This document shows positions 832 to 60,855 of a stretch of 64,000 nt of DNA, one piece after another. Source of the DNA: Candidatus Forterrea multitransposorum CG_2015-17_Forterrea_25_41 (GTDB lineage: Archaea; Iainarchaeota; Iainarchaeia; Iainarchaeales; CSSED10-239); the NCBI GenBank assembly GCA_009392915.1, contig CP045477.1:128001-192000 (forward strand). Direction: 5' to 3'. Numbering within the stretch: the stretch's first letter is position 1; the number at the start of each line of letters is the position of its first letter. The translations under genes were made by a program, and so were the position numbers. The notes beneath the pieces are model-generated. The model made no database searches. It saw only the letters and a program-made list of their open reading frames with translations, and was not told the DNA's origin.

Positions 832-838
832 ATTTATC

Positions 839-2143: not shown

Positions 2144-2153
2144 TTGAAATGAT

Positions 2154-2852: not shown

Positions 2853-2864
2853 AAGGGATAACTT

Positions 2865-4077: not shown

Positions 4078-4705
4078 TTTTTTTTAAACAAATTTTGTTT
4101 ATTGGGCATTTTTCACAATTAGGATTTCTTGGAAAACAAATGTTTTGTCCTAAGATAACAAATAAATAGTTTGTATCTATCCAAAATTTTTTAGGAAGTT
4201 TATTTCTTAAAACCATTTCTGTTTCTAAAGGGTTTTTTGTTTCAATATAGCCTATTCTATTAAATATTCTGTGTACATGTGTATCTACACAAATAGCTGG
4301 TATTTTATATGATACTGCAATTACTAGATTTGCAGTTTTTCTTCCTACACCTGGAAGAGTAATTAATTCTTCTATGGTTCTTGGTACTTTATTATTAAAA
4401 TCTTCTTTTAATTTTTTTGCAAGTAACTTTAAGTTTTTAGCTTTAGTTTTATAAAATCCAACAGGATATAATAATTGTTCTAATTTTTCAATTTTAATTT
4501 TTATTAAGTCATCTGTATTCTTTATTTCTTTAAATAAATTATCACAAACTTTTGCAGTAATTTGATCTTTTGTTCTTGCTGAAAGCATTGTTCCAATTAA
4601 TACATAAAAAGAATTTTTACTTTTAATATCTATTTGTTCTGCAAGAGGAATTGTGTACTCTTTTAACTCTTTTTCAAGAATTTTATATATTTTTTCAATA
4701 TCCAT
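4070..4705 (-). CDS. nth: Endonuclease III (DNA glycosylase/AP lyase)
   Basis: HhH-GPD motifs LIGTMLSARTKDQ and LPGVGRKTANLV; C-terminal 4Fe-4S cluster C-x6-C-x2-C-x5-C. Confidence 0.8.
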   Translation of the reverse strand: MDIEKIYKILEKELKEYTIPLAEQIDIKSKNSFYVLIGTMLSARTKDQITAKVCDNLFKEIKNTDDLIKIKIEKLEQLLYPVGFYKTKAKNLKLLAKKLKEDFNNKVPRTIEELITLPGVGRKTANLVIAVSYKIPAICVDTHVHRIFNRIGYIETKNPLETEMVLRNKLPKKFWIDTNYLFVILGQNICFPRNPNCEKCPINKICLKKIK

Positions 4706-9538: not shown

Positions 9539-10879
9539 ATGAAAAACTTAACAACTGACGATATTGGTAAAATCATAGAAATCAAAAGAAAAGTAAATAA
9601 TCAAGAGATAACTCATAAAGGTTATTTAGTTGAAATCTTAAATGATTCTTTAAAAGTTAAGCTTTTAGATAATGGTTATAATATAAGTATTTTTTCAAAA
9701 GAAATTTCTTCTTTTTCTTTAGATGAGTCTAAAGTTTCTTTAGGAAAAGTTAATTCTAAAGACTTTAAAGAAAATTCTTCTCTTCCAAATATTGTATATA
9801 TTGGAACAGGTGGAACTATTGGAACACATGTTGATTATGTTACTGGTGGAGTTACAATGTCAAGAACTCCTCAAGAAATAATTTCTACAACACCTGAACT
9901 TGAAAATATAATTAATATTAAAAAAATAGAATCTCCTTTTAGAAAAGCATCAGAAGACATTTATTATAAAGATTGGCTTGTTTTATCTGAAGTTGTTTTT
10001 AAATATTTAAATGATCCTTCAATTGACGGAATAATTATAACTCATGGAACAGATACTTTATCTTTTACAGGGAGTGCACTTTCTTTTTTAATTGAAAACA
10101 TAAATAAACCTGTTCTTTTAGTTGGTGCTCAAAGATCTCCTGATAGAGCAAGTTTTGATGGATCTTTAAATCTTATTTGTGCAGCTCGTTTTGTAAAGGA
10201 AAAAATACCTGGTGTTTTTACTGTTATGCATGGTTCTATTAATGATGATTTTTGTTCAGTTATTAAAGCTGTTAAATCTAGAAAAATGCATACTTCTAGA
10301 AGAGATGCTTTTATTCCAGTAAATGATATTGTTTATGCAAAAGTTTTTTCTGATGGTAAAATAGATTTTTTAAAAAAAGAAATTTTTTCAAAAGATAAAA
10401 TTCCTTTATTAAATAAAGAATATGAAGAAAAAGTAGCACTTATAAAAATACATCCAAATATTGATCCTTCAATAATTGATTGGTATATTGAAAAAGGTTA
10501 TAAAGGAATTATTTTTGAAGGAACTGGTTTAGGTCATGTTCCAACTGCAGAAAATAATGATTCTATTCTTCCTTTAAAATATCAGTTTATACCTTATATT
10601 AAAAAAGCAATTGAATCTAAATTAATTGTAGTTATGTCTTCCCAATGTCTTTTTGGAAGAGTAAATAATAAAGTTTATTCTAACCTTAGATATCTTTCTC
10701 AAGCAGGTGTTGAATATTTAGATTCTCATGACATTTTACCAGAAGTTTTACAAATAAAACTTTCAGTTGCTTTAAAAAAATTTAAACCAAAAGAAGAAAT
10801 AATTAAATATCTTAAGACCAATATTTCTGGCGAAATAACTTCTAAAGAAGTTCCTTCTTTTTATGATGAAGTTTTATAA
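9539..10879 (+). CDS. gatD: Glu-tRNA(Gln) amidotransferase subunit D (asparaginase-like)
   Basis: About 90-aa N-terminal extension then asparaginase motifs VYIGTGGTIG and ITHGTDTLSFTGSAL; immediately followed by gatE. Confidence 0.8.
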   Translation: MKNLTTDDIGKIIEIKRKVNNQEITHKGYLVEILNDSLKVKLLDNGYNISIFSKEISSFSLDESKVSLGKVNSKDFKENSSLPNIVYIGTGGTIGTHVDYVTGGVTMSRTPQEIISTTPELENIINIKKIESPFRKASEDIYYKDWLVLSEVVFKYLNDPSIDGIIITHGTDTLSFTGSALSFLIENINKPVLLVGAQRSPDRASFDGSLNLICAARFVKEKIPGVFTVMHGSINDDFCSVIKAVKSRKMHTSRRDAFIPVNDIVYAKVFSDGKIDFLKKEIFSKDKIPLLNKEYEEKVALIKIHPNIDPSIIDWYIEKGYKGIIFEGTGLGHVPTAENNDSILPLKYQFIPYIKKAIESKLIVVMSSQCLFGRVNNKVYSNLRYLSQAGVEYLDSHDILPEVLQIKLSVALKKFKPKEEIIKYLKTNISGEITSKEVPSFYDEVL

Positions 10880-10900
10880 TGTTTATTAATATGATTTATT

Positions 10901-12823
10901 ATGATTAAAATTGATATAAATAATTTAGATTATGAAAAACTAGGCCTTATGTGTGGTCTTGAATTACATCAACAGTTAAACACAAATAAACTTTTTTGTA
11001 ATTGTCCTTCAAAATTAATTAATGATGATTTAAAGCCAGATAAAGTAATCCATAGACAATTAAGAGCAGTTTCTTCAGAGACTGGAGATTTAGATGTTAC
11101 TGCAAAAGAAGAACAAGATAAAAATAAAATTTTTAAATATCTTTTTTATAATTCTTGTAATTGTTTAGTTGAAACAGATTCACAACCTCCTTTAAATATT
11201 AATAAAGATGCTTTAAATATTGCTTTAGTTGTTTCTTTTTTAACAAATTCAGTTGTTGTAAATACTTCTCATGTTATGAGAAAACAAGTAATTAATGGTT
11301 CTAATGTTTCTGGTTTTCAGAGAACTACAATGATTTCAACTGATGGTTATCTTGATTTTAGTTTTGGAAAAGTAAGAATTGATAAAATTCTTTTAGAAGA
11401 AGATGCTGCTAGAACAATTGAAAAAACTGATTCTATTGTAACTTATTCTTTAGATAGGCTTGGTATTCCTTTAATAGAATTAGTTGCATGGCATGATATG
11501 CACACTCCTGAACAAGTTAAAGAAGTTGCATTATATCTTGGACAAATGTTTCGAAGTACTGGTAAAACTAAAAGAGGTTTAGGTTCAATCAGACAAGACA
11601 TTAATATTTCTATTAAAGATGGTTCTAGAGTAGAGATTAAAGGTTGTCAAGATCTTGATTTAATTCCAGAGATTGTTAATAGAGAGATTGTTCGTCAATT
11701 AAATTTAATAGATATTAAAAAAGAAGTTATTGAAAAAAATCTTACTTCATTTTCTTTAAAACCTATTATGATTAATGATTATTTTAAGCAAACTGATTCT
11801 AAAGTTGTTTTAAAATCTTTTTCAGAAAATAAAAATGCTTATTTATTTTTACTTCCTGGATTTAAGGGTTTTTTAGGTAGAGAAATTCAACCAAACAGAA
11901 GACTTGGAACTGAAATTGCAAGTGTTTTAAAAATGAGAACTACTCTAAAAGGTCTTTTCCATTTAGATGAACTTCCAAATTATGGTATTACAGAAAAAGA
12001 AGTTAATTTAATTAAAAAAGATTTTTCTGTTAAAGAAAATGATTCCTTTATAATTATTTTTTCTTCTGAAAATGAAATTTCTTCAGTTAAAAATGTAATT
12101 GAAGATAGACTTAATAAACTTAAAGACGGGGTTTTAAAAGAAACTAGAGCTTCAACTGTTGAAGGAAATACAGAATATCAAAGACCTCTTTCAACTTCTT
12201 CAAGAATGTATCCTGAAACTGATCTTTCACCAATTGTTTTTAATGAAGAATTATTAGCTTTAGCTAAAAAAGAAGTTCCTTTATCTTTAGAAGATAGAAA
12301 AAAATTATATGTTGATACTTTTAAACTAAGTTCACAACTTGCAGATAAAATGAAACTTAATAATTTTGCACCAATTTTTGAAAAAATAGTTTCTGAATAT
12401 AAAATTAATCCTACAACTCTTTCAGTATTTTTACTTGAAGATTTAATTAAAGCTTCAAGAGAAGGAGTTTTAGATCTTGATGATGTTAATGATTCTTTAT
12501 TAATTAATTTTTTTAAAACAAAAGATTTGTTTAACAGAATTAATAAAAATAAACTTTTAGATGTCTTTATTGAATTTTTAAAAAATCCTCTTGATTTAGA
12601 AAGAATTATTCAAGAAAATAAAAAAGAGGATTTATCTTTTGATGTATTAACTAATATTATTGATCAAGTAATAGATGAAAATAAAGATTTTATTTTAAAA
12701 CAAAAAGAAAGATCTTTAGGTTTATTGATGGGAAGAGTAATGTCTAAAACTGAAAATAAATATGATGGGAAAATTATTTCTCAAACAATTAAAGAAAGAT
12801 TAAATCTTTTTTTAAAAAATTAA
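10901..12823 (+). CDS. gatE: Glu-tRNA(Gln) amidotransferase subunit E
   Basis: N-terminal GLELHQQLNT..KLFCNC signature of GatE/GatB; 640 aa; operon with gatD. Confidence 0.8.
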   Translation: MIKIDINNLDYEKLGLMCGLELHQQLNTNKLFCNCPSKLINDDLKPDKVIHRQLRAVSSETGDLDVTAKEEQDKNKIFKYLFYNSCNCLVETDSQPPLNINKDALNIALVVSFLTNSVVVNTSHVMRKQVINGSNVSGFQRTTMISTDGYLDFSFGKVRIDKILLEEDAARTIEKTDSIVTYSLDRLGIPLIELVAWHDMHTPEQVKEVALYLGQMFRSTGKTKRGLGSIRQDINISIKDGSRVEIKGCQDLDLIPEIVNREIVRQLNLIDIKKEVIEKNLTSFSLKPIMINDYFKQTDSKVVLKSFSENKNAYLFLLPGFKGFLGREIQPNRRLGTEIASVLKMRTTLKGLFHLDELPNYGITEKEVNLIKKDFSVKENDSFIIIFSSENEISSVKNVIEDRLNKLKDGVLKETRASTVEGNTEYQRPLSTSSRMYPETDLSPIVFNEELLALAKKEVPLSLEDRKKLYVDTFKLSSQLADKMKLNNFAPIFEKIVSEYKINPTTLSVFLLEDLIKASREGVLDLDDVNDSLLINFFKTKDLFNRINKNKLLDVFIEFLKNPLDLERIIQENKKEDLSFDVLTNIIDQVIDENKDFILKQKERSLGLLMGRVMSKTENKYDGKIISQTIKERLNLFLKN

Positions 12824-12838
12824 AAATGTGAATTATTT

Positions 12839-13348
12839 ATGGCTAAACATGATATTCTTTATGCTCCTTGGAGAAAAAAATATGTAACTTCAAATACTAA
12901 AAAAGAAAGTAAAAATCCTAAAACTTGTATTTTTTGTAAAGCTCCAAAAGAAGAGGTAATATTTTCAAGTAAAAAAATATTTCTTCAAGCAAATAAATAT
13001 CCTTATGGGGAAGGTCATCTTTTAGTAATTCCAAAAAGACATGTAAATCAAGTTATAGATCTAACTTCTAAAGAAAGAGAAGAATTATTTAATATGATTG
13101 ATCTTTCAGTTTATGCTTTAAATATTTTTATGAAACCTGAAGGTTATAATATTGGTTGTAGTATAGGTGATGTTGCTGGAGAAAGTATTAAACATTTGCA
13201 TTTTCATATCTTACCAAGATATAAAGGAGATGTTGCATGGTCAAGACTTTGTGATTTTGAAGTTGTTTCATTATCTCCAAATGAATTAGCTATTAGTCTT
13301 AAAGAAATTATTGAAAAAAATAAACTTGCAAAAAAATTTAATCTTTAA
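12839..13348 (+). CDS. HIT-family nucleotide hydrolase/transferase
   Basis: Histidine-triad motif HLHFHILPR. Confidence 0.6.
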   Translation: MAKHDILYAPWRKKYVTSNTKKESKNPKTCIFCKAPKEEVIFSSKKIFLQANKYPYGEGHLLVIPKRHVNQVIDLTSKEREELFNMIDLSVYALNIFMKPEGYNIGCSIGDVAGESIKHLHFHILPRYKGDVAWSRLCDFEVVSLSPNELAISLKEIIEKNKLAKKFNL

Positions 13349-13475
13349 GTAAAATAGTTTGTTTTTTTATCTTTTTTTAAGTTTTTCTAAGGTTTATATG
13401 TAACCATTAGTTTTTAAATATATTTATACATTATATATATAAATTTTATATTTATGCTTTTTTGGTGATTAAGAT

Positions 13476-13961
13476 ATGTTTAAACTATTTAAGAAGACAA
13501 GAGTTACAGAAGTTGTTGAAATTGATGAGTCTACTATTTCTGAAATTAAAAGACCTAAAGTTGTTCAAGTAGAACAAAAGAACTATAGAGTTAAATCTAT
13601 TGATTGGTTAGAACAACATTATATAGTTGTTTCAGAAGTTGCATCTGGTAAAAAAACTGGTGCAAGACAACAAGGAAAATTTACTTTTGAAGGAAGACAG
13701 ATCTATAAGGATGATGTTACAAGAAAACTTTATAGTGATCTTTTAGATAATTATAGTTATTATGCTATGACTGTTAAAAGATATATTGTTGTTAGAAAAG
13801 AACTTGAGATTATTGATAAACAAAAAGATGAAGAATACTTAATTGCAGGTAGAGCGAAAGAATTTAATTTAGAAGCTTCAAGACTTGAGAATGCATTAAA
13901 TGTTTATCTAACAAATATTAATGTTATTAAAAATAAGATTAAGGATTATTTATATTCTTAA
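13476..13961 (+). CDS. Hypothetical protein
   Basis: Clean ORF with ATG and an upstream AT-rich promoter-like region; no recognisable motif. Confidence 0.3.
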   Translation: MFKLFKKTRVTEVVEIDESTISEIKRPKVVQVEQKNYRVKSIDWLEQHYIVVSEVASGKKTGARQQGKFTFEGRQIYKDDVTRKLYSDLLDNYSYYAMTVKRYIVVRKELEIIDKQKDEEYLIAGRAKEFNLEASRLENALNVYLTNINVIKNKIKDYLYS

Positions 13962-14008
13962 ATCTTTTTTCTATTTTCTTATAAAATTAGTTTTTTTTAA
14001 AAAATATT

Positions 14009-14203
14009 TTAAATCATTCCTTTTGCCATACCTTTGGTTGATCTTAAACATTTTTTATGCCAATACTGTCCACCCCATTTTTTATCACAACCTTTTTGGT
14101 TGCAAAGGGCGCATGTTTCATCAGGATATTTAGATTTTGAGAAATCTATTCTTTTTTCATTATCTTCTTTATTTTCTTTTTTTTTAAATAATCCAAATAC
14201 CAT
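14009..14203 (-). CDS. Small Cys-rich zinc-ribbon-like protein (hypothetical)
   Basis: C-x2-C ... C ... H-x2-C arrangement (CALCNQKGCDKKWGGQYWHKKC). Competes with two overlapping plus-strand ORFs of similar length. Confidence 0.25.
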   Translation of the reverse strand: MVFGLFKKKENKEDNEKRIDFSKSKYPDETCALCNQKGCDKKWGGQYWHKKCLRSTKGMAKGMI

Positions 14204-14237
14204 TTTTTTTCACAATTAGTTTTTTTTTAAAAAATTA

Positions 14238-14310
14238 TAGTCCGGAGGAGATTCGAACTCCTGTCGCCAGGTTCAAAGCCTGACATGCTTGGCCACTACA
14301 CTACCGGACT
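14238..14310 (-). tRNA. tRNA-Gln (anticodon UUG)
   Basis: Reverse complement folds as a cloverleaf: acceptor AGTCCGG/CCGGACT, anticodon stem TCAGG/CCTGG, loop CUUUGAA, T-loop TTCGAAT, discriminator A. Confidence 0.8.
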
Positions 14311-14443
14311 ATTTTATTTAGCAAAGAAATATTTTCTTTTCTATTAATATCTAAAAAAGGAAGGGTTTTTATTTCTTTATTAAGTTAAATATTTAATAAT
14401 AGAAATATTTTTATATACTATTCTTTATAAATTAATATATAAA

Positions 14444-14518
14444 GGGAGTGTAGCTTAGTCTGGTTGGAGCACTCGACTGATAATCGAGAGGCCGCAGGTT
14501 CGAATCCTGCCATTCCCA
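14444..14518 (+). tRNA. tRNA-Ile (anticodon GAU)
   Basis: Acceptor GGGAGTG/CATTCCC, anticodon stem CTCGA/TCGAG, loop CUGAUAA, T-arm GCAGG-TTCGAAT-CCTGC. Confidence 0.8.
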
Positions 14519-14559
14519 CTTTCTATTTTTATATAGATTTTAAAAAAAGAGGATAATTT

Positions 14560-15267: not shown

Positions 15268-15357
15268 ATGGAATTTTTTATTTTTATTTTTTTTAAAATA
15301 TTTTTTTTTTAACTTTAAAAAAAAACAAAAAACCTATTTAAAAAGAAGGTGATTTTT

Positions 15358-16980
15358 ATGACTGATTCTCAAACACAAAATAACGCCATGTTTGGTGAAG
15401 GAACTAGACGTGAGAGGGGCAAAGATGCTCAAAAAATAAACATACTTGTTGCAAAAGCAGTTGCTAATGCGGTAAAGTCTACTTTAGGTCCAAGAGGGAT
15501 GGACAAGATGCTTGTTGATGAACTTGGAGATGTAACTATTAGTAATGATGGTGCTACAATTTTAAAAGAAATGTCAATAGAACACCCTATAGGTAAGATG
15601 TTTGTTGAACTTGCAAAAACACAAGATGATGAAGTTGGAGATGGTACTACTTCAAGTGTTATTATTGCAGGTGAGTTAGTTTCTAAAGCTGAAAACTTAC
15701 TTGATGAAAATATACATTCTTCAATAATTATTAGAGGATATAAAATGGCTTCTGAGAAAGCAATTTCTTTTTATCAAGAAATTTCAGAAGATATTTCTTT
15801 AAGTGATAAAGATCTTTTATTAAATATTGCAAAAACTTCAATGACAGGAAAAGCTTCAGACTATAGTGATTATCTTTCAAAAGCTGTTGTTGATTCTATA
15901 TTGATGATTTTAAATGAAACAAATTATAAAGAAATTGATAGAGATAAAATAAGACTTGAAAAAAAGATTGGATCTTCAATTTCTGAAACAAAAATAATTG
16001 ATGGTATTGTTCTTGATAAAGAGATTGTGCATCCTGAAATGCCAAAATCTTTAGAAAATTGTAAAGTTGCAATTTTAAATACTGCTCTTGAGATTAGAGA
16101 ACCTGAAAATGATACTAAAATACAAATCAATTCTCCTGAACAACTTCAAATGTTTATTGAACAAGAAGAAAGTCAATTAAGAAAAATGGTTGATAAATTA
16201 ATTGAAACTAAAACAAATATTGTTTTTTGTCAAAAAGGAATTGATGATCTTGCAGAACATTATCTTTCAAAAGCTGGTATTTCTGCAATTAAAAGAGTTA
16301 AACAATCAGATATTGAAATTTTAGCAAAATCTTCAGGCGCAAAGATTATTACAAGAATAAATGATATGTCACAAGAAGATTTAGGTTTCTTTGGAAAAGT
16401 TTATGAAAAGAGAATTTCTGGAGAAAATATGTTGTTTATTGAAAATCCTAAACAAAAAGGAATTGTTACAATTCTTTTAAGAGGTTCTTCAGAACAAGTT
16501 TTATCTGAAACAGAAAGAACAATTACAGATGCTATTGGTGCTGTACTTTCTTCACTTAGATCAGGAAAATATGTTTCTGGTGGGGGTTCTTGTGAAATTG
16601 AAGTTTCTTTAAGACTTAAAAACTATGCTAAAACAATTGGAGGAAGAGAACAACTTGCAATTGAAGCATTTGCAGATGTTTTAGAATCTATTCCTAAAAT
16701 TTTAGCTGAAAGTTCTGGACTTGATGCAATTGATACTTTAGTTTCTTTAAGAAGTATACATCAAGATATAAATAATAAAAGTTATGGGGTAGATGTAATT
16801 AATAGTAAAATAGAAGATATGAAAAAATTACATGTTATTGAACCATTAAACCTTAAAACCCAAATTATTAATTCTTCTTTTGAAGTAGTTGAAATGATTC
16901 TTAGAATAGATGATATTATTGCAGCTTCTTCAAAGAATAAAGGGCAAGGTTTTCAAGGAATGCCAAATAATTTAATGTAG
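15358..16980 (+). CDS. ths: Thermosome (group II chaperonin) subunit
   Basis: [12 protein letters not shown]-binding GDGTTS, and the TCP-1/thermosome family pattern throughout. True ATG at 15358 with GAAGGTGA upstream; the track start at 15349 is a GTG. Confidence 0.9.
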
Positions 16981-17076: not shown

Positions 17077-17415
17077 ATGAAAGTAAAAGATATAAAACCT
17101 TTCCAAAAAAAAATAAGTCTTTTATGTAAAGTAATTTCAAAGACTGAAATAAGAAAAGTAGTTTCAAGATTAGATGAAATTGAACATAAAGTTTGTGAAG
17201 CTTTAATTGGTGATGATACTGGTGTTGTTTATCTTACTTTATGGGATTTATCTATAGAAAATTTACAAGAAGGTAAGGTTTATTCTTTTGAAAATCTTTA
17301 TTCTTCAGAGTTTAAAAAATCTTTAAGACTTAATCTTGGAAGATTTGGAGAATTTAAAGAAGTTTCTCAAGAAATTGAAGTAAACAAAGAAAATAATCTT
17401 TCAAAAGAAGTTTAA
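17077..17415 (+). CDS. Single OB-fold ssDNA-binding protein (SSB/RPA-like, tentative)
   Basis: Pattern ..IGDDTGVVYLTLWD..ENLQEGKVY.FENLY..EFKKSLRLNLG matches the archaeal short-RPA OB fold. Confidence 0.4.
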   Translation: MKVKDIKPFQKKISLLCKVISKTEIRKVVSRLDEIEHKVCEALIGDDTGVVYLTLWDLSIENLQEGKVYSFENLYSSEFKKSLRLNLGRFGEFKEVSQEIEVNKENNLSKEV

Positions 17416-17450: not shown

Positions 17451-17525
17451 GGAAGTGTAGCTTAGTCTGGTTAGAGCATTGGTCTTATACACCAAAGGTC
17501 GCAGGTTCGAATCCTGCCATTTCCA
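17451..17525 (+). tRNA. tRNA-Ile (genomically encoded anticodon UAU)
   Basis: Body nearly identical to tRNA-Ile(GAU) at 14444. Acceptor GGAAGTG/CATTTCC with a compensatory change, anticodon stem TTGGT/ACCAA, loop CUUAUAC. Confidence 0.75.
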
Positions 17526-17582
17526 CTTTTTTTTAAAAATAAAGCTTTATAAATCTAATTAACTACTATATATTAGATAATT

Positions 17583-18956
17583 ATGGGTTATTCTTTTAAA
17601 AAAGAAAGTAGATTATTTTTTTGGATATTAAGTATTTTACTTTCTTCATTAATATTTTCTATATTATATTTCTTCCAAGTGTTTGGAAGTTCTCAAAATA
17701 ATTCTCTTTCATTTATCTTTTCATTAATTATTTTAATTGTTTTATTTATTGTTGGTATGTTTAATTATAAACTTACAACAAAGCTATATGGTTTTATTTC
17801 TTCACAAAGAGATTTATCTAAACTTATAAGTAGAATTAATCTAGATGATTCTGAAGAAAATATTCAAAAAATGATTAGTAGATTTAAAGAAGTTTTTTAT
17901 AATCTTGATCTTTCAGATAAAGAAGGTTCAATTTTAATTATTAGAAAAACTGTTGGCTTAGATTCTGATGCTGCTTTCAAAGTATATAAGATTCTAAAAA
18001 ATATTAGTTTTACAAAAAATGTTTTAACTATTTCTGGTTTTTTAATATCTGTAATTGTTTATTTTATAATTACAAAAATTAATTTTTTTAATATTATTAC
18101 TGAAACTAAGTTTTTCCCACTTGCAATTTCTTTATTATTATTTTTTATATTTTTATTTGAAAGTAGATTGTCTTCTAAAATACCTTCTAGTTTTTATATT
18201 AACCTTGTAATTATTAATAAAAAAGCATTAACAAATAGTAAAAAGGATGTAATTGATAGTGAAAATCAATTAAATAATATTTTTAAAAAAAGAGATGAAA
18301 TTAGAGAAAAAATAAAAGATATTGTTTTTAATTTAACAAAACAAGGTTTTAAAAAAAAAGATGTTGTTGAAATAATTAATTCTAGAAAAAAAGATTCTTA
18401 TGGTCTAAAAGATTTAATTATGCAATCAAATGAAGATTTTAATTCAGAAGCAAAAAAAGCTTCTTTTAAAGATGTTTCTTTAGATATTGAGAATATTTTA
18501 AAATTTTATGAAGATGTTAAAAATAAAGAAAAAGAAGTGCTTTCTTTAAAAGAGAAAATAAACCAAATTAGAGAAATTCAAGAAACTGTTGAAAAAATAA
18601 ATTCTAATGATTGGGATTATTATAAAAATATTAAATTTAATTTAAATAAATCTAAAGAATTTGAAAGAAACATAACTGATGAAATTTCAAGTAAATTACA
18701 TCATAGATCTGAACTTAAGGAAGATAAAGAAGTTATAATTAAAAATTTATATAATTTATTCATAAATTATAAAGACTCAATTACAAAAGATCAAGTTTAT
18801 TCTTTTTTAATTTCTAAAGGTTATTGTTATGAAACTATTATGGATCTTTTTGATGAATTTAAGAAAAATAATATTGATTTAACTAAAAATAAAAAAACTT
18901 TTCAAGACAAAATTATTTCAAAGATTAATAATGTTTATGAAAGTTTTAAAGATTAG
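17583..18956 (+). CDS. Membrane-anchored coiled-coil protein, paralog of 4792-6186
   Basis: Same architecture and shared motifs (PSSFYINLVIINKKAL; C-terminal KINNVYESF). Confidence 0.4.
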   Translation: MGYSFKKESRLFFWILSILLSSLIFSILYFFQVFGSSQNNSLSFIFSLIILIVLFIVGMFNYKLTTKLYGFISSQRDLSKLISRINLDDSEENIQKMISRFKEVFYNLDLSDKEGSILIIRKTVGLDSDAAFKVYKILKNISFTKNVLTISGFLISVIVYFIITKINFFNIITETKFFPLAISLLLFFIFLFESRLSSKIPSSFYINLVIINKKALTNSKKDVIDSENQLNNIFKKRDEIREKIKDIVFNLTKQGFKKKDVVEIINSRKKDSYGLKDLIMQSNEDFNSEAKKASFKDVSLDIENILKFYEDVKNKEKEVLSLKEKINQIREIQETVEKINSNDWDYYKNIKFNLNKSKEFERNITDEISSKLHHRSELKEDKEVIIKNLYNLFINYKDSITKDQVYSFLISKGYCYETIMDLFDEFKKNNIDLTKNKKTFQDKIISKINNVYESFKD

Positions 18957-19061
18957 TTTTTAGATAAATTTAAAAATCTGTTTATAAATATAATAAATAA
19001 AAGAGATATATTTAAATTTAAAAGAGATAATAAAAATAGATAATAAAAGAGATAATAAAAC

Positions 19062-20408
19062 ATGATTGAACCAAACACATTTTTTTTAATATTTTCAGCA
19101 ATTTTTTTAATTGCTTTTTTTGGAAATCTTTTTTTTAAAAAGACAAGATTTTCAGATATTTCTATTCTTTTAATCATCGGTTTTTTAATTGGTTCTGTGT
19201 TTAACATTATTACCAATTCTCAACTTGAAATTTTAAAAAGTATGTCTTCTTTATTTGGTTCTTTAGCTTTAATTATTATTCTTTTTGAAGGTGGACTTCA
19301 TCTTAATTTTTATAAAGTTTTAAGAGAGATTGGAAAAGCTACAATGTTTACAATTGCAGTTTTCTTTTTTACAGTTCTTTTCTCTGGAGTTTTACTTCAT
19401 TATATTTTTTCAATACCTGCAATTTATGCACTTTTAATTGGTTCTGCAATTGGAGGTGTAAGTTCTGCTGTGGTAATTCCTTTAGTTATGAACTCTAAAT
19501 CTAAAGAAGAAACTAAAACTTTAATTACTTTAGAGTCTGCAATTACTGATGTTTTGTGTATTATTGTCTTTATAACTCTTTTTGAAATAATTGTGACTCA
19601 AAAATCAAGTATTCAGTTTGTTACTCAAAATATAATTTCTGCATTTGCAATTGCAACTGTTATAGGTGCAGTTTCAGGAATTGTTTGGACAAAGGTTTTA
19701 AGAGATTTTAATGTTATTAGAAAATTTAATTATCTTTTAACTCTTTCTTTTTTATTTTTAATTTATGTTTTAATTGAATATGCAAAAGGAAATGGAGCTT
19801 TTGGAGTTTTAATCTTTGGTTTAGTTTTAGGTAATTCTAATGAAATTTTAAAAATATTTAAAATGAAAACTTTAAGTCTTGATAATGTTGTTAGTTTAAA
19901 TGAAGTTTATAAGTTTCAAGCAGAAATTAGTTTATTTATTAAAGCATTTTTCTTTATTTATTTAGGACTTATAATTGATCTTTCTTCTGTAACTTTAAAT
20001 ATTATTTTAATTTCTGCAGTTTTAATTTTTGTATCAATTGCTTCTAGGTATTTATCCATTTATATATTTTCTGGAGATAAGACAATTAAGCAAGATACAA
20101 GATATATTTTATCTCTTCATGCAAGAGGACTTGCTGCTGCTGTTTTAGGTACTTATCCAATTGCTATGGGTCTTGTAAACAATTATACTTTAATCCTTTT
20201 ACCAATAACTTTCCTTGTAATCTTTTTAACAAATATTACAACTACTTTTATGTTTTTCTTTACAGAAAGAAATAAACTTAAGGAAGAGTCTTTAAATGAA
20301 GAATCTTCAGAAAAAGATTCTTCTCAGGAAGAAGAAACTAATCCTTATAGTTTAATTAAAAAATCTAATAAAAATAAAGATTCTAAAGAAAAAATAGATG
20401 ATAATTAA
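19062..20408 (+). CDS. Na+/H+ antiporter, CPA1/NhaP family
   Basis: About 11-12 TM helices and a general Na_H_exchanger pattern; acidic C-terminal tail. Confidence 0.55.
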   Translation: MIEPNTFFLIFSAIFLIAFFGNLFFKKTRFSDISILLIIGFLIGSVFNIITNSQLEILKSMSSLFGSLALIIILFEGGLHLNFYKVLREIGKATMFTIAVFFFTVLFSGVLLHYIFSIPAIYALLIGSAIGGVSSAVVIPLVMNSKSKEETKTLITLESAITDVLCIIVFITLFEIIVTQKSSIQFVTQNIISAFAIATVIGAVSGIVWTKVLRDFNVIRKFNYLLTLSFLFLIYVLIEYAKGNGAFGVLIFGLVLGNSNEILKIFKMKTLSLDNVVSLNEVYKFQAEISLFIKAFFFIYLGLIIDLSSVTLNIILISAVLIFVSIASRYLSIYIFSGDKTIKQDTRYILSLHARGLAAAVLGTYPIAMGLVNNYTLILLPITFLVIFLTNITTTFMFFFTERNKLKEESLNEESSEKDSSQEEETNPYSLIKKSNKNKDSKEKIDDN

Positions 20409-20602: not shown

Positions 20603-23443
20603 ATGTTTTCAAATCAAAATGAAAAAGAAATAAAAGAGTTTTGGGAAAAAAATAATATTCCTAAAAAAGTAAGAGAAAAAGAGTCTGATAAACATTATTA
20701 TTTTATAGACGGACCTCCATATGCAACAGGTTCTATTCATTTAGGAACTGCAATGAACAGGATCTTAAAAGATATTCTTTATAGGTTTAAAAGACAAGAA
20801 GGTTTTAAGGTTTTAGACATTCCTGGTTTTGATACTCATGGTGTGCCAATAGAACGTAAGGTGCAAAAAAAATATGATTTAAAATCAAAAGAAGATATTG
20901 AAGCTTTTGGTATTGAAAAATTTTCAAAAGAATGTCATGCATTTGCAACTAAACACATCTCTGAAATGTCAAAAGATATTTATGATTTAGGACAATGGAT
21001 GGATTGGGAAAATCCATATAGAACTTTAGATCAAACCTATATGCAATCTGCTTGGTGGACTTTTAAAAAAGCTTTTGATAAAGGTCTTTTATTTCATGAC
21101 AAATATCCTATCCATGTCTGTCCTGATTGTGAAACTTCAGTTTCTTTTAATGAAATTGAATATCAAGATTTAACTGATCTTTCAATTTTTGTTTCCTTAC
21201 AATCAAAAGAAGATTCTTCTCTTTTCTTTGTTATTTGGACAACAACTCCATGGACTCTACCTGCAAACATGGCAATCATGGTTCACCCTAAATATACATA
21301 TGTTGAGCTTATCTCAAACAATAAAAAATATATTGTTGCAAAAGATTTATCTGAAAAATTAATAAAAGAATTTAATTTTGAAAACTATACTTTAGGTAAA
21401 GAATATTTAGGAGAAGAACTTGTAGGTAAAGAATATCTTCCTGTTCTAGGAGAATGGTTAAATCTTCCTGAAGATTATACAAAAAATGCATATAAAATAA
21501 TCTCTTCAGCAAGACATGTAAACCTAGAAGACGGTTCTGGTTTAGTTCATTGTGCTCCAGGACATGGTAAAGAAGATTATCAAGTTGGAAGAGAATTTAA
21601 TATTCCTATATTTTCTCCGGTTACAATGTCAGGTGAGTATGATGATTCTGTTTCTTTTGGAAAAGGAAAAAAAGTTAAAGAACTTGATTTAGATATAATG
21701 AAATATTTACATGAAAAAGAATGTATCTTAGCTAAAAGAAAAGTAAAACATAGTTACCCTACATGTTGGAGATGTCATAATCCTTTAATAATGGTATCTT
21801 TACCTCAGTGGTTTTTAAGAATTGAAGATTTAAAACCAAGACTTGTAGAACTTAATGAAAGTGAAGTTTCTTGGCATCCTTCTTGGGGAAAAGATAGATT
21901 TTCAAACTGGCTTAAAAATTTATCTGATTGGCCAATTTCAAGAGCAAGATATTGGGGAACTCCTGTTCCTATTTGGAAATGTGATAACTGTGAAAAAATA
22001 CATGTCTTTGAGTCTTTAGAAGATTTAAAGAAAAAAGCTCCTGAAGTAGATTTAAATATGGATATTCATAAACCATTTATTGACAAAATAGAAATTACTT
22101 GTGATTGTGGAACAAAGGTGAAAAGAATTCCAGAAGTATTTGATGTTTGGTTTGATTCTGGTGTTGCATCATGGGCATCTTTAGGTTATCCTTTCAAAAA
22201 AGAATTATTTGATAAATATTGGCCAGCAGATGCTAATTTAGAAGGTCCTGATCAAATAAGAGGTTGGTGGAATTCTCAAATAATTGCTTCTGTAATTGCT
22301 TTTGATAAAGTTCCATTTAAACAAATTTCTATGCATGGTATGGTTCTTGCTGGAGATAAAAGAAAGCTTTCTAAATCTGAAGGAAATGATATTCCTTTAA
22401 TTGAAAGATTTTCACAAACTTCAATTGATTACTATAGATATTATTTTGCAAAAGAATTTTCAGGAGAAGACATTGTTTTAGATTCTAAAAAATTTGATGA
22501 AGTTAGAAGAACTTTAAATCTTTTAGAAAATCTTTATAATTTCATTTCTCTTTATGATGAAAAACAAACATTTGTAACTTCTTTAGATGTTTCAAAAGAA
22601 ACTTTACTTGTTGAAGATAAATGGATTCTTTCAAGATTTAATAATCTTTTAAAAAATAGTTATGCAAACTTTTCAACAACTAACTATTCAAAAGTTATAA
22701 ATGATTTTGAAAAATTTTTGCTTGAAGATTTTAGTAGAATATATGTTAAACTTTTAAGAAAAAGAAAAGATGAAAATCATGTTCTTTCATATGTCTTTTC
22801 CTCAAGTTTAATATTGATCTCACCAATAGTTCCTCATTTTACAGAATTCATGTATCAAAAGTTTTCTGTAAAAGAAAAAGAATCTGTGCATTTCTACCAT
22901 AATCCTTTAATCAATGAAAGTTTAATTGATTTAGATCTTGAAAAGAACTTTGACCTTTCTCAAGAAGTTGTAAAAACAGCTCTTTCTTTAAGAGAGGACT
23001 TAAAGAAAAGATTAAGATGGATCTTACCTGAAATGCATGTTGTTTTAAAAGACTTTGAAAAAATATCTATCTTTAAGGAAATTATAGAAGATATGGCAAA
23101 TATTGAAAATGTAAGTTTTTCAAATAATGCTCCTGATAACATGCCTTCAAAAGAAGTTTTAAAAGATGTTTTTGTATACATTAATGAAAACATTGATTCT
23201 TCTTATAAAGAAGTTTGGGAAGTATCAGAGCTTACAAGGCTTATACAGTCTGAGAGAAAGAAACAAAAGTTAAATCCAAATGATAAAGTTTCTTTGAAGA
23301 TATCTTGTAGTGAAAAAGATTTCCTTGTAAAAAATAAACCTAAAATTGAAGATGCAACAAACACTATTCTTGATATCTTGGACGATTTAAGTGAAGACAA
23401 TAAACAAAAGTTAATAGAGAGAGAAGTTTCTTTCTCTTTTTAA
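20603..23443 (+). CDS. ileS: Isoleucyl-tRNA synthetase (class Ia)
   Basis: GPPYATGSIHLGTAMN (HIGH region), WPISRARYWGTPVPIW (IleRS-type), and KLSKS in place of KMSKS; 946 aa. Confidence 0.7.
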   Translation: MFSNQNEKEIKEFWEKNNIPKKVREKESDKHYYFIDGPPYATGSIHLGTAMNRILKDILYRFKRQEGFKVLDIPGFDTHGVPIERKVQKKYDLKSKEDIEAFGIEKFSKECHAFATKHISEMSKDIYDLGQWMDWENPYRTLDQTYMQSAWWTFKKAFDKGLLFHDKYPIHVCPDCETSVSFNEIEYQDLTDLSIFVSLQSKEDSSLFFVIWTTTPWTLPANMAIMVHPKYTYVELISNNKKYIVAKDLSEKLIKEFNFENYTLGKEYLGEELVGKEYLPVLGEWLNLPEDYTKNAYKIISSARHVNLEDGSGLVHCAPGHGKEDYQVGREFNIPIFSPVTMSGEYDDSVSFGKGKKVKELDLDIMKYLHEKECILAKRKVKHSYPTCWRCHNPLIMVSLPQWFLRIEDLKPRLVELNESEVSWHPSWGKDRFSNWLKNLSDWPISRARYWGTPVPIWKCDNCEKIHVFESLEDLKKKAPEVDLNMDIHKPFIDKIEITCDCGTKVKRIPEVFDVWFDSGVASWASLGYPFKKELFDKYWPADANLEGPDQIRGWWNSQIIASVIAFDKVPFKQISMHGMVLAGDKRKLSKSEGNDIPLIERFSQTSIDYYRYYFAKEFSGEDIVLDSKKFDEVRRTLNLLENLYNFISLYDEKQTFVTSLDVSKETLLVEDKWILSRFNNLLKNSYANFSTTNYSKVINDFEKFLLEDFSRIYVKLLRKRKDENHVLSYVFSSSLILISPIVPHFTEFMYQKFSVKEKESVHFYHNPLINESLIDLDLEKNFDLSQEVVKTALSLREDLKKRLRWILPEMHVVLKDFEKISIFKEIIEDMANIENVSFSNNAPDNMPSKEVLKDVFVYINENIDSSYKEVWEVSELTRLIQSERKKQKLNPNDKVSLKISCSEKDFLVKNKPKIEDATNTILDILDDLSEDNKQKLIEREVSFSF

Positions 23444-23982: not shown

Positions 23983-25287
23983 ATGGAAAAAAAATATTTA
24001 TCAATAAAAGAAGTTTTAGAAAAGAAAGAAGGAGAGGTATCTTTAAGAGGATGGGTACACAGGTTTAGAGACCAAAAGACAACAATCTTTATAACCTTAA
24101 GAGATGTTACAGGGGTAATACAACTTGTGTGTGATCAAGATAAAGTATCTCCAGAGCTTTTTGAAAAAATAAAACAAACAACTATAGAATCATCAATAGT
24201 TGTTTCTGGAACTGTAAGAAAAGAAGAAAGATCTCCTCAAGGTTATGAAATTGATATAAAAGATTATGAGATTGCAGGTCTTGCAGAAACTTATCCAATA
24301 TCAAAAGATTTTTCTGAAGAATTTCTTTTAGATGTAAGACACTTATGGTTAAGATCAAGAAAAATGCAAGCAATCTTAAAAATAAGATCAACTGTCTTTA
24401 GAGCTATTCATGATTATTTTAGAAGTCAAGATTATTATGAATATCAATCTCCAGTTCTTCAGTCAGTTCAATGTGAAGGAGGATCAAGTTTATTTAAGGT
24501 TGATTACTTTGAAAAGAAAGGTGTCTTTTTAGCACAGACATGGCAATTGTATGCAGAGCCAGCTATCTTTTCTTTAGAAAGAATATATACAATCTCTCCA
24601 TCTTTTAGAGCGGAAAAGTCAAAGACAACAAGACATTTAGCTGAATATTGGCATGCAGAGATGGAAGGAGCTTGGGTTTCTTTTGAAGAGTTACAAGAGC
24701 ATGCAGAAGGTTTAATAAAAAAAGTAATCTCTGATGTTTTAAAACACCATAGAGATGATCTTGAAACTTTAAAGAGAGATGTTAAAGTTTTAGAAACTGC
24801 AATTTCAAAACCTTTTGTAAAAATGACATACACCGAAGCTTTAGAGATTTTAAAAAAAGAGCATGACATGCATGTTGAATGGGGAAAAGACCTAAGAACT
24901 GTTGAAGAGGATCTTTTATCTAAAATGTATGATACTTTTATTATTATTACAAGATATCCAAAAGAAGTAAAAGCTTTTTATATGAAAGAAGATCCACAAG
25001 ACCCTAGAGTAGTTTTAGGTTTTGATTGTATCGGTCCTGAAGGTTATGGTGAGATTATAGGTGCAAGTGAAAGAGAGGATGATATTAAAAAAATAGTTGA
25101 AAGACTTGAAAAAGACGGAGAAGATGTCTCACAATATGATTTCTATCTTGACACTAGAAAATATGGTTCTGTCCCTCATTCTGGTTTTGGAATGGGTGTT
25201 GAAAGAATAATCTCTTATATCATAAAAGCTGATACAATAAAGGATGCTATTGCTTTCCCTAGAACAATGGTAAGGTATAGACCTTAA
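23983..25287 (+). CDS. Aspartyl/asparaginyl-tRNA synthetase (class IIb; Asp vs Asn not resolvable by eye)
   Basis: N-terminal OB anticodon-binding domain, motif 2 FRAEKSKTTRHLAEYWHAE, motif 3 GFGMGVERII; GGAG RBS upstream. Confidence 0.75.
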   Translation: MEKKYLSIKEVLEKKEGEVSLRGWVHRFRDQKTTIFITLRDVTGVIQLVCDQDKVSPELFEKIKQTTIESSIVVSGTVRKEERSPQGYEIDIKDYEIAGLAETYPISKDFSEEFLLDVRHLWLRSRKMQAILKIRSTVFRAIHDYFRSQDYYEYQSPVLQSVQCEGGSSLFKVDYFEKKGVFLAQTWQLYAEPAIFSLERIYTISPSFRAEKSKTTRHLAEYWHAEMEGAWVSFEELQEHAEGLIKKVISDVLKHHRDDLETLKRDVKVLETAISKPFVKMTYTEALEILKKEHDMHVEWGKDLRTVEEDLLSKMYDTFIIITRYPKEVKAFYMKEDPQDPRVVLGFDCIGPEGYGEIIGASEREDDIKKIVERLEKDGEDVSQYDFYLDTRKYGSVPHSGFGMGVERIISYIIKADTIKDAIAFPRTMVRYRP

Positions 25288-28141: not shown

Positions 28142-30544
28142 ATGCAAAAGAGATTAGGTATTTTAGGTATTTTTTTAATAGTTTTAATGTTTGTTTTTTC
28201 ATCAGGCTTTGTTTTTGCTGAAAATTCATTTGTAAGTTATAGTTCTACTTCAAAAGTAGGTTGGGAAATAACTTCTGCTGAAATTACAAATGATAATATT
28301 GAAATTAATTACATGAATAATCTTGAAGCAAGAGATTCTTGTAAAACAAATGAAAGAACTTTTATGTGGGTTCCTTTTGCAACAGAATATAGAGGTTTGT
28401 TTTTAGTAACTCTTTTTGTTCCTAATAATTTTAATAATGAATCTGGATTTGATTCATTTTTGTATGATAATTTGTCTGACAGAGGAAAAAGTGAAAATGA
28501 AACAGAAGATACTCTTAAAAAATATGAACGATATTTAAAAAGTAATGATCCTACTTTTATGAATTATTTAAATAGTTATGTTAGTGAAGATAAATATTTT
28601 TATATAGTTAAAATTGAAGATGATTTTAAACAAAATAAAAATTATACTCATAATATTGATTTAAGTATGATTAATGAATTAGATAAATTTGGAAAAGTTT
28701 ATATTTATTTATATGATCATTGTGGAAGTTTATCTTCATTTTATCATAATGACTATAAAATTTCTAAAAATCTTGCGAAAGCAGTTTATAATTTTAGTGA
28801 TGGTCAAGAAGAAACTTCTAAAAAAGAAAATGCTACTTCAATAAAATTATCTTCTTCTATTGAAGATAATAAAATAAAATTAGATTCAAATGTTACTGAT
28901 AATGTTAATATTTATTATACATTAGATGATTTTAATTTAGAAAACCATTTTAAATCAAAATTTGTTGAATTTAATTATAATAAAGAAAAAATAAATACTT
29001 ATCTTAAAAGTAATTCTTGGAATATTAATCAATTTGGGGTAAATTTTAAAGTGACTAAATATACTGCACCTGTATCTTTATCTTCTGGACAAAAACTAAA
29101 TGCAATTGCAGTTAATTATGATAATTTTACTTTAAGTAATTATCTTGAAGGAATTACTCTTTCATCTTCTGAAAATTATTCTTCATCTTCTCAAAGCAAT
29201 AATTTTTCAATTAACTTTAAAGAAGATAAAAAAACAGATAATGTGATTTGTGAAAAGGAAACAAAAATTTGTTATGTTAAATTTAATCAAAACATTGATT
29301 TAGATTTAATTGCAAATAAAGTAAATGATGGAAATGTTTATTTTTATATTAATGATATAGAAGGAGATATTGAAAATATTGTAAAAAGCTTATCTTCTCC
29401 TCTTTTAAATATTACACCACCTGCTAAATTAAATGATAATAAACTAAGTTTAGGAAGTAATTTATTCAAATATTCAGATTTAGAAAATTATACTCTAAAT
29501 CTTAATCAAAATGAATCAAAGTTTTTTACTATTAGTGCTTTCCAATTAAATACAAATGTTGATAAGTTATATTTTGTATTTTTACCTGACGAAAACTTTG
29601 AAGATTTAGTAAAATATAAAACTTTACAAAAAATAATAAATTCTGTATATTGTGATGGTTGTAAAATTCCAGATTGGATGCCAAATGGATTAATAATTGA
29701 TAATCAAAATTTATCTACTAGTGATCCTGATCCTTCTACTAGTGATCCTGATCCTTCTACTAGTGATCCAAATTGTAAATATACTGGTGATTTTGAAATT
29801 TTATGTGATTTTCATATCTTTAATTTAGATAAAGATATTGGAAGTAGTTCTATTGATAGTTCAGCAGGAACATTTAGCCCTAAAGAAACATATTATTTAG
29901 AAATTGAATATTTTTATAATGATAAAAAAAATAATTTTAATAAAAATTTAGAAGCTTATAAATTATTTGAATCTGAAAAAAATAATTTTAATCTTACTGA
30001 AAATGAAATTACAATATTTTTTTCAATAATTGGAGGAGAATCCTCTTTTTTAAATGATCAAGCTGGTGATCAAGGAGAATCTATAGGTTTAACTCAAATA
30101 AATAAACCTATATGGAGAACAGAAAGTGGTTTTAATGATCTAAAAGTATATCTTCCAAGTGAAGTTAATACAGTTGAAAAATATTATAAATATTTTGATG
30201 ATTCTAAAAATGATTTAAATAAATCTTTATATTTAGGTCTTGCAGTTTTTAAATATAATTTAAATTATGCTAAAAATAATATTTCTAACTTTAATTCAAA
30301 GTATTCAGATATTGATAGAGCATTTATAATGTTTTACGCACACCAGTTTAATATAAGAGATACAAAAACATTCTTTAATACTGTAAATATTCCTACAGAT
30401 AAAGAAAATGTAATTATTAATTGTGCAGGAACTGGTAATGATTTATTCCAAAATTCTTCTTTAAAGAAACTTGGTTGTGTTGCGACTGTAGGTTCTGTAA
30501 GAAAAATTGGATGGTATCTTAATTACATAAATAATTTAAATTAA
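28142..30544 (+). CDS. Large secreted protein with a C-terminal lytic-transglycosylase (SLT)-like domain
   Basis: Signal peptide MQKRLGILGIFLIVLMFVFSSGFVFA. C-terminal GGESSFLNDQAGDQGESIGLTQI aligns with the SLT catalytic signature E-S-x(13)-G-L-M-Q. Also an (STSDPDP)x2.5 linker. Confidence 0.45.
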   Translation: MQKRLGILGIFLIVLMFVFSSGFVFAENSFVSYSSTSKVGWEITSAEITNDNIEINYMNNLEARDSCKTNERTFMWVPFATEYRGLFLVTLFVPNNFNNESGFDSFLYDNLSDRGKSENETEDTLKKYERYLKSNDPTFMNYLNSYVSEDKYFYIVKIEDDFKQNKNYTHNIDLSMINELDKFGKVYIYLYDHCGSLSSFYHNDYKISKNLAKAVYNFSDGQEETSKKENATSIKLSSSIEDNKIKLDSNVTDNVNIYYTLDDFNLENHFKSKFVEFNYNKEKINTYLKSNSWNINQFGVNFKVTKYTAPVSLSSGQKLNAIAVNYDNFTLSNYLEGITLSSSENYSSSSQSNNFSINFKEDKKTDNVICEKETKICYVKFNQNIDLDLIANKVNDGNVYFYINDIEGDIENIVKSLSSPLLNITPPAKLNDNKLSLGSNLFKYSDLENYTLNLNQNESKFFTISAFQLNTNVDKLYFVFLPDENFEDLVKYKTLQKIINSVYCDGCKIPDWMPNGLIIDNQNLSTSDPDPSTSDPDPSTSDPNCKYTGDFEILCDFHIFNLDKDIGSSSIDSSAGTFSPKETYYLEIEYFYNDKKNNFNKNLEAYKLFESEKNNFNLTENEITIFFSIIGGESSFLNDQAGDQGESIGLTQINKPIWRTESGFNDLKVYLPSEVNTVEKYYKYFDDSKNDLNKSLYLGLAVFKYNLNYAKNNISNFNSKYSDIDRAFIMFYAHQFNIRDTKTFFNTVNIPTDKENVIINCAGTGNDLFQNSSLKKLGCVATVGSVRKIGWYLNYINNLN

Positions 30545-59994: not shown

Positions 59995-60140
59995 TTTATT
60001 TAAAAAAGAAAATAAATATTTCTCTCCACTAATAAATATACTTAATCCTTTATTTAAGGGAGGGGAAAAAAAGGTCTTTCCATAAAAGAAAGTACCTTTC
60101 TAATAGATGCATATTTCTAAATAATATATATCCTTTAACA

Positions 60141-60190
60141 AATATATCTCTTTTCAAGCAGGGGGTAGCTGGCCGAGTAAATTAATTTAG
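60141..60190. repeat. GC-rich island repeat, copy R1
   Basis: AATATATCTCTTTTCAAGCAGGGGGTAGCTGGCCGAGTAAATTAATTTAG; also present at 60856-60905 and, slightly diverged, at 61942-61986. Confidence 0.9.
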
Positions 60191-60779: not shown

Positions 60780-60855
60780 ATTATATAACTTTATATAAGT
60801 TAAATTTTTAAATATTTTTATTTGCCTAAAGTATATATTAATATGTGTTTTAAAA

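Follow-up and report, generated by a model that had tools for sequence, protein, structure and literature searches.

In most archaea, the isoleucine codon AUA is read by a tRNA with a CAU anticodon that carries an agmatidine made by TiaS. Nanoarchaeum and Korarchaeum are without TiaS (PMC3919564; also PMC8450103, PMC6000648), and ARMAN-2, ARMAN-4 and ARMAN-5 were described in 2011 as having tRNA-Ile(UAU) while lacking both tRNA-Ile(CAU) and TiaS (PMC3239211). Bacterial tRNAs of this kind are on record from Mycoplasma mobile, Bifidobacterium and Neorickettsia, together with 371 distinct TAT tDNAs in metagenomes (PMC3575796). Here, we describe a tRNA-Ile gene with a genomically encoded UAU anticodon (the UAU gene) at positions 17451–17525 of a 64,000-nucleotide stretch of contig CP045477.1, called the window throughout. 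This gene is very probably a functional minor tRNA-Ile3(UAU), which would decode the abundant AUA codons of a DPANN archaeon with ~24% GC content directly, through a U34–A pair, a reading that has precedent in the literature (PMC3239211, PMC6000648, PMC8450103, PMC3919564). UAU decoding is already known from other small archaea, and the window gene is a further example of it that involves no new mechanism.

ARAGORN called tRNA-Ile(tat) at 17451–17526 and tRNA-Ile(gat) at 14444–14519, both on the forward strand, and the Rfam covariance model RF00005 scored the UAU gene at 75.5 bits (E 9.7e-15), the top tRNA score in the window, and tRNA-Ile(GAU) at 72.9 bits. Both isoleucine tRNAs aligned over the full length of the model (positions 1–71) as intron-free genes with a seven-nucleotide anticodon loop and no pairs flagged as non-canonical, and the posterior probability was high across the anticodon arm of the UAU gene. 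A sequence-only reading of this DNA had proposed an encoded UAU anticodon here and had named a different loop register, such as a nine-nucleotide loop or an intron, as grounds for giving the proposal up. Both programs bear the proposal out, and the RF00005 alignment excludes the other registers, with the 75 nucleotides of the gene forming an unbroken match to the tRNA model that leaves no intron at position 37/38. The UAU gene is a genuine, canonical, intron-free tRNA gene; it lies in a 167-nucleotide gap between open reading frames (ORFs), no ORF of 30 or more amino acids overlaps it, and its position 34 is encoded as T (17486), not as the C34 of an agmatidine-type tRNA-Ile2.

Table 1. Features of the window that bear on the UAU gene (positions count from the first nucleotide of the window).
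Feature	Position	Strand	Details
tRNA-Ile(GAU)	14444–14518	+	Paralogue with the same acceptor, D and T arms; reader of AUU and AUC; ARAGORN and RF00005
Thermosome	15349–16980	+	PF00118; upstream neighbour of the UAU gene
SSB-like OB-fold protein	17077–17415	+	PF21473; upstream neighbour of the UAU gene
tRNA-Ile(UAU) gene	17451–17525	+	75 nucleotides, no intron, CCA not encoded, discriminator A73 at 17525; ARAGORN and RF00005
Anticodon arm TTGGT-CTTATAC-ACCAA	17479–17495	+	Loop from C32 (17484) to C38 (17490); RF00005 and sequence
Anticodon T34-A35-T36	17486–17488	+	A37 at 17489
T8 run	17527–17534	+	Two bases past the discriminator; likely oligo-T transcription stop, judged from the sequence
Membrane ORF (457 amino acids, no family match) and Na+/H+ exchanger	17583–20408	+	Separate the tRNA from ileS in the sub-lineage of the window
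ileS, isoleucyl-tRNA synthetase (IleRS)	20603–23443	+	946 amino acids, archaeal/eukaryote-like type 2; TIGR00392 763.7 bits, cutoff 621.4; presumed charging enzyme
Kae1, KEOPS synthase of N6-threonylcarbamoyladenosine (t6A) at position 37	34495–35484	+	TIGR03722 409 bits, cutoff 375; would be the A37 modifier of both isoleucine tRNAs
RNase P Rpr2 subunit	44133–44438		
Bacterial-type tRNA guanosine(34) transglycosylase Tgt	57712–58821	+	369 amino acids; TIGR00430 401 bits, cutoff 306.75

To follow the gene across genomes, we searched GTDB genomes, one for each species, using a degenerate pattern for tRNA(UAU) in which C32 is fixed, and obtained at least 120 loci (L001–L120). Syntenic orthologues are present in further relatives (L122–L127, L129, L139, L155 and L160). 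In L122–L127, where IleRS is 62–67% identical to that of the window, the UAU gene sits at the same place, after the thermosome gene and the gene for the SSB-like OB-fold protein, and the orthologues of these relatives are 90–96% identical to one another versus 79–84% to the GAU paralogues. Seventeen archaeal tRNA(UAU) copies share one cloverleaf, with 11 of 21 stem pairs retained through changes on both sides. The anticodon arm of the window gene recurs identically in the distant DPANN loci L037, L073 and L098, where acceptor or T stems differ, and in all 12 clade UAU copies from a metagenome collection. Its G30–C40, U31–A39, C32 and C38 do not vary across DPANN lineages with IleRS identities below 50%. 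Conserved synteny, compensated pairs and an invariant arm indicate that the UAU gene is maintained by selection and is functional.

A direct comparison of the two isoleucine tRNA genes shows 63 of 75 positions to be identical. Eight of the 12 differences fall in the anticodon arm, which reads CTCGA-CTGATAA-TCGAG in the GAU gene and TTGGT-CTTATAC-ACCAA in the UAU gene, while the D-stem, the T-arm and A73 are the same in both. The D-loop, the variable loop and each strand of the acceptor stem contribute one difference apiece, the two in the acceptor stem making up a compensatory change from G3–C70 in the GAU gene to A3–U70 in the UAU gene. The near-identical bodies, the single compensatory acceptor change and the unlike anticodon arms had all been described in the sequence-only reading, and the two arm sequences agree with it to the letter. 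Since both tRNAs have A73 and share acceptor, D and T arms, an isoleucine identity of the UAU tRNA and its charging by the neighbouring type-2 IleRS are plausible.

AUA is heavily used in the window, as had also been noted before: the 58 ORFs of 100 or more amino acids taken for the count contain 607 AUA among 1880 isoleucine codons (32%), a frequency of 32 per 1000 codons overall. When the window ileS is aligned with 60 homologues of 43–49% identity, its ATA positions (21 codons of one protein) align with I in 32%, L in 19%, V in 17% and M in 10% of cases. Columns at ATT and ATC codons resemble these, unlike ATG columns, which carry M at 35%, indicating that AUA is, on the evidence of this alignment, an isoleucine sense codon in the host. 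The idea that the gene is an AUA decoder is thus supported by its UAU anticodon, its isoleucine-type body, its conservation and the alignment of AUA as isoleucine.

These observations can be assembled into a probable decoding scheme. The UAU tRNA would be transcribed on its own from its AT-rich spacer and would end at the T8 run, oligo-T being a termination signal for archaeal RNA polymerase. RNase P would trim the transcript, and CCA would be added post-transcriptionally. A37 would be converted to t6A by KEOPS/Kae1, as expected from the universal occurrence of t6A37 on tRNAs that read ANN codons. IleRS would charge the tRNA through the body that it has in common with tRNA-Ile(GAU), and U34 would pair with the A of AUA. 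Misreading of AUG would be limited by competition from tRNA-Met, combined with a modification of U34 or the context of the anticodon loop; ribosome features as in M. mobile would be a further option. The genome as a whole would have neither tiaS nor tRNA-Ile2(CAU), in line with published reports on Nanoarchaeum, Korarchaeum and ARMAN. No TATA box could be assigned confidently near the tRNAs, given the GC content of 24%, and a scan for sigma-70 promoters and intrinsic terminators around them, with a model not suited to an archaeon, gave 21 sites versus 20.2 expected and no terminators.

The tRNA(UAU) genes found in the GTDB scan are spread widely. At least 21 are archaeal, mostly with DPANN labels, from Woesearchaeota, Iainarchaeum/Diapherotrites, Micrarchaeota, Aenigmatarchaeota, one Thermoplasmata and several metagenome-assembled genomes (MAGs) labelled 'archaeon', and at least 99 are bacterial, mostly from Patescibacteria, also known as the candidate phyla radiation (CPR). 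The view expressed in the sequence-only reading that a UAU tRNA-Ile is known from only a few lineages is therefore overstated, all the more as the published cases also include ARMAN-2, ARMAN-4 and ARMAN-5 (PMC3239211); it reflects an older literature on cultured or complete genomes. The CPR matches listed include Saccharibacteria, Paceibacterota and Microgenomates, and at least 20 bacterial copies share the arm CAGAG-CTTATAC-CTCTG. UAU-based decoding of AUA looks common in CPR too. Copies from Woesearchaeota, Micrarchaeota and Aenigmatarchaeota (L011, L031, L042, L081, L094, L107 and L110) carry an intron of 15–30 nucleotides right after position 37, and the Iainarchaeota-type copies among the matches listed are intron-free. 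Most of the intron-bearing archaeal genes were missed or mis-called by ARAGORN in bacterial mode, as with L110, which was called 'tRNA-Stop(tta)'. The sole archaeal label outside DPANN among the matches listed is that of a Thermoplasmata-labelled MAG, whose intron-free tRNA-Ile(UAU) has A38 (L014, 3929–4004, reverse strand).

Position 38 is A in the four other tRNAs of the window and C in the UAU gene, and C38 shows a strong association with the UAU anticodon. Among the matches listed, 17 of 19 archaeal tRNA(UAU) genes and 54 of 99 bacterial ones combine C32 with C38, compared with 1 of 14 archaeal and 6 of 123 bacterial genes among the other tRNAs of the same loci, counts that are not adjusted for shared ancestry and in which C32 is imposed by the search pattern. 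In DPANN archaea as well as in CPR bacteria, UAU anticodons may thus be accompanied by an arm signature consisting of C32 and C38, U31–A/G39 and G30–C40, and this signature could weaken or shape the loop such that U34 pairs with A and not with G. Our literature search returned no paper discussing C38 in tRNA-Ile(UAU).

A second association concerns ileS. Among the matches listed, 11 of 14 archaeal loci without an intron (L027, L037, L038, L073, L088, L089, L093, L098, L105, L113 and L116) have ileS downstream of tRNA(UAU) and in the same orientation, and none of the 99 bacterial loci does. The spacing is 36–373 nucleotides in nine of these loci (36–58 in the tightest, with L088, L038, L027 and L113 in the range of 36–60), 961 nucleotides in L098 and 2.9 kb in L093. 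The two genes are 3.08 kb apart in the window, through the insertion of the membrane ORF and the exchanger gene, which also stand between the pair in L122 and L124 and are missing in L126 and L127, where the gap is 312 nucleotides. On the other side, tblastn places the thermosome and SSB-like genes together beside tRNA(UAU) in L037, L073 and L098, a thermosome gene in L038, L082 and L088, and an SSB-like gene in L089 and L116. Since the block of thermosome, SSB-like gene, tRNA-Ile(UAU) and ileS is conserved as a whole, the tRNA–ileS linkage may reflect inherited synteny, co-transcription or co-adaptation; the position of tRNA-Ile(UAU) upstream of ileS in Iainarchaeota-related DPANN might point to a co-adapted, possibly co-transcribed tRNA–synthetase pair. 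That the arm signature and this pair together form a modification-independent module for decoding AUA is a tentative idea, which we regard with considerable doubt. The C38 association and the tRNA–ileS linkage are the only parts of this work that might be new, and neither was found discussed in the literature searched.

The best solved relative of the window IleRS is the 1032-residue chain 8c9d_A, along with three related entries, and the enzyme matches chains of this type and Thermus thermophilus 1ile_A more strongly than the bacterial-type Staphylococcus aureus 1ffy_A; the two IleRS types differ in their C-terminal domain (PMC3575796). A C-terminal truncation of the window enzyme, which is ~85 residues shorter than 8c9d, was considered and rejected, as all DPANN relatives end in the same C-terminal domain. 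Where DPANN homologues are longer, the difference lies at the N-terminus or in internal insertions.

Several points weigh against our interpretation of the gene. The assignment of AUA to isoleucine is based on just those 21 codons of a single protein. An adaptation of IleRS to U34, which the sequence-only reading had proposed to look for, could not be demonstrated: structure matches and the comparison of DPANN homologues revealed no U34-specific feature, and the Trp-to-Arg site of M. mobile belongs to the bacterial-type C-terminal domain and has no counterpart in the type-2 enzyme of the window (PMC3575796). The search for tiaS and for a CAU tRNA covered the window and 10 kb on each side, ~84 of 664 kb or ~13% of the contig, so that tiaS or a divergent tRNA-Ile2(CAU) could lie elsewhere, and a tRNA-Ile2 need not share the body of tRNA-Ile1, which makes a scan for CAU anticodons on that body a weak one. 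This leads to the alternative of redundant decoders, in which tiaS and tRNA-Ile2(CAU) are encoded in the ~87% of the source contig outside the inspected part and the UAU tRNA is an extra reader of AUA, much as some bacteria are reported to retain tilS together with a TAT gene. However, general Pfam scans gave no TiaS-family match among the window ORFs of at least 100 amino acids, the called genes of the 10-kb flanks or the loci of relatives, and the seven tRNAs of the 84 kb, five of which are in the window itself according to ARAGORN, read Gln(UUG), Gln(CUG), Ile(GAU), Ile(UAU), Val(UAC), Gly(GCC) and His(GUG), without a CAU anticodon. The clade-specific isoleucine tRNA body was found with a CAT anticodon in no case in the metagenome collection, versus 55 genes in a control allowing any base at position 34 (43 GAU, 12 UAU), and the published archaeal UAU cases are all without TiaS and a CAU tRNA-Ile (PMC3239211, PMC3919564, PMC8450103). 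These results fit the absence of tiaS predicted in the sequence-only reading without proving it, as an Ile2 body may differ and the 84 kb make up ~13% of the genome, and we consider redundant decoders unlikely. Ambiguous decoding, with the tRNA reading both AUA and AUG through U–G wobble, or AUA not meaning isoleucine here, is very improbable. In its favour, tRNA-Ile(UAU) of M. mobile binds AUG on Escherichia coli ribosomes (PMC3575796), and M, at 10% in the ATA columns of the ileS alignment, does not rank among the six commonest residues given for ATT and ATC, but I, L and V dominate at ATA just as they do at ATT and ATC, M reaches 35% only at ATG, and the tRNA combines an isoleucine body with A73 and is widespread in the same form in DPANN.

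Other alternatives concern the gene's origin and integrity. A pseudogene or a chance tRNA-like sequence is hardly credible in view of an Rfam tRNA score that tops all others in the window, the compensatory change at 3:70, and a syntenic position that is conserved and an anticodon arm that is invariant in many genomes; a pseudogene, in a genome with tiaS and a CAU tRNA-Ile2, had been named beforehand as an outcome that would undo the proposal, and the synteny, the 11 of 21 compensated pairs and the invariant arm rule out a pseudogene. A recent duplication of tRNA-Ile(GAU) within the lineage, followed by rewriting of the anticodon arm, has more in its favour, with the two genes 3 kb apart and distinguished by only 4 of the 58 nucleotides that lie outside the anticodon arm, bodies that are near-identical in every relative compared, and a comparable origin proposed for Korarchaeum (PMC6000648). 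Within genomes, GAU and UAU bodies show 0–3 differences over 42 compared positions in seven genomes, and a derived T-stem state shared by both was seen only in L139; over so few differences (0–3 in 42 nucleotides), distances within and between genomes are not clearly separable. Concerted evolution of the two bodies was considered in this connection, but the bodies are too conserved for the distances to show it. Against a recent duplication, the identical UAU arm recurs in L037, L073 and L098 despite differing bodies and adjacent IleRS fragments only 49–54% identical to that of the window, orthologues group by anticodon and not by genome, and the linkage of tRNA(UAU) to ileS is common to these lineages. 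Together, the shared arm, the grouping by anticodon and the common linkage argue that the split between UAU and GAU genes is old, and we hold a recent duplicate to be distinctly unlikely. The best reading is that the UAU tRNA represents an old DPANN lineage whose body has been kept matched to that of the GAU isoacceptor, a match that could result from gene conversion or from the identity constraints of a common IleRS.

Archaeal marker genes in the window (GatD/GatE, thermosome, Hjc, PTH2, S19e, L31e, eIF6, RNase P Rpr2, Kae1 and archaeal DnaG) and the nearest named relatives of its IleRS, from Candidatus Iainarchaeum sp. (64% identity) and Candidatus Diapherotrites (45–56%), identify the host, by gene content, as an Iainarchaeota-related DPANN archaeon. 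An identical IleRS protein is encoded on contig Ga0100381_1000002 (663,621 bp) of JGI 3300007985 and in dozens of other samples, and the organism is also represented by GCA_009993835.1.

Some further features of the window and of related loci are recorded here. A queuosine-type wobble enzyme such as Tgt is unexpected in an archaeon; with the model for TgtA, the archaeal G15 enzyme, the protein falls short of the cutoff (167 versus 350 bits), and the same NCBI protein name is found in this organism and in a Candidatus Iainarchaeum sp. MAG. Tgt could relate to the extreme bias for NAU over NAC codons, for example 810 TAT versus 78 TAC. Adjoining Tgt and a major facilitator superfamily transporter, the region 59326–63298 encodes RadC, a YoeB/ParE-like toxin, the PD-(D/E)XK nuclease YhcG and a second PD-(D/E)XK nuclease, and this cluster may be a horizontally acquired island. 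Two large ORFs, 28142–30544 (800 amino acids) and 30611–34480 (1289 amino acids), both on the forward strand, have no Pfam or NCBIfam match and are probably surface proteins; their positional counterpart in L124 shows leucine-rich repeat matches, ranging from faint ones to one that carries no such mark (LRR_4). Further tRNA genes are likewise found close to the genes of their cognate enzymes: tRNA-Gln(UUG) (14238–14310) lies ~1.4 kb downstream of gatD–gatE in the region 9539–14518 of the window. tRNA-Asn(GUU) closely follows asnS in relatives (L122, 14226–15638; L126, 9235–11290), and the window encodes asnS (23983–25287) without any tRNA-Asn. In L126, a cassette resembling a diversity-generating retroelement (405–4201), with two 23S_rRNA_IVP/bAvd-like genes, an AAA ATPase and a reverse transcriptase (RVT_1), immediately precedes the SSB-like gene and tRNA-Ile(UAU). 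A gene for the large subunit of RuBisCO is found ~7.5 kb past the right end of the window in the same genome (L180, 18657–20105).

With the UAU gene, an Iainarchaeota-related lineage joins the archaea that would read AUA by an encoded UAU anticodon, and the scan shows that this solution is common in both DPANN archaea and CPR bacteria and is not confined to two or three genomes. How U34 avoids AUG could be approached through the invariance of the anticodon arm, the association with C38 and the linkage of the tRNA to ileS, all of them testable, and a near-complete 664-kb genome, seen in dozens of samples, would serve well as a reference. In annotation, a lack of tRNA-Ile2 should not be marked as a defect in genomes of this kind.

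Among described systems, Nanoarchaeum equitans and Korarchaeum cryptofilum come close, with an archaeal tRNA-Ile with an encoded UAU anticodon replacing the agmatidine-bearing tRNA-Ile2(CAU) in their genomes, a tRNA designated tRNA-Ile3(UAU) in the tRNAscan-SE 2.0 paper. In Korarchaeum, as in the window, the UAU gene is most closely related to its own genome's GAU gene, whereas the Korarchaeum gene has an intron and the window gene has none (PMC6000648). The host of the window gene also differs from both in being Iainarchaeota-related, with a ~24% GC genome, and probably mesophilic, judging from the A-U-rich tRNA stems. The ARMAN lineages (Micrarchaeota, Parvarchaeota) belong to the same superphylum as the window host and likewise have a UAU tRNA (PMC3239211); the gene of ARMAN-2 differs from the intron-free window gene by a 25-nucleotide intron at 37/38, cut by the epsilon2 endonuclease. 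M. mobile resembles the window host in its AT-rich, reduced genome, in reading AUA with UAU and without a modified cytidine, and in facing the same problem of misreading AUG, but it is a bacterium, its bacterial-type IleRS is adapted by Arg865 in the Zn-binding domain, and its U34 has been proven to be unmodified (PMC3575796). The canonical archaeal tRNA-Ile2(CAU) performs the same task of reading AUA, and not AUG, as isoleucine, with a C34 that TiaS converts to agm2C34 using agmatine, where the window gene has T34. The eukaryotic tRNA-Ile(UAU), with the anticodon ΨAΨ (Ψ, pseudouridine), is also a minor isoleucine isoacceptor with an encoded UAU anticodon, served by an IleRS of the eukaryotic/archaeal type; unlike the window gene, the eukaryotic genes carry an intron, which Pus1 needs for the formation of Ψ34 and Ψ36. 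Finally, pylT–pylS is a tRNA gene linked to its synthetase gene. The UAU tRNA–ileS pair involves neither a new amino acid nor a dedicated synthetase, and the two systems are alike in keeping a tRNA gene beside the gene of its cognate synthetase.

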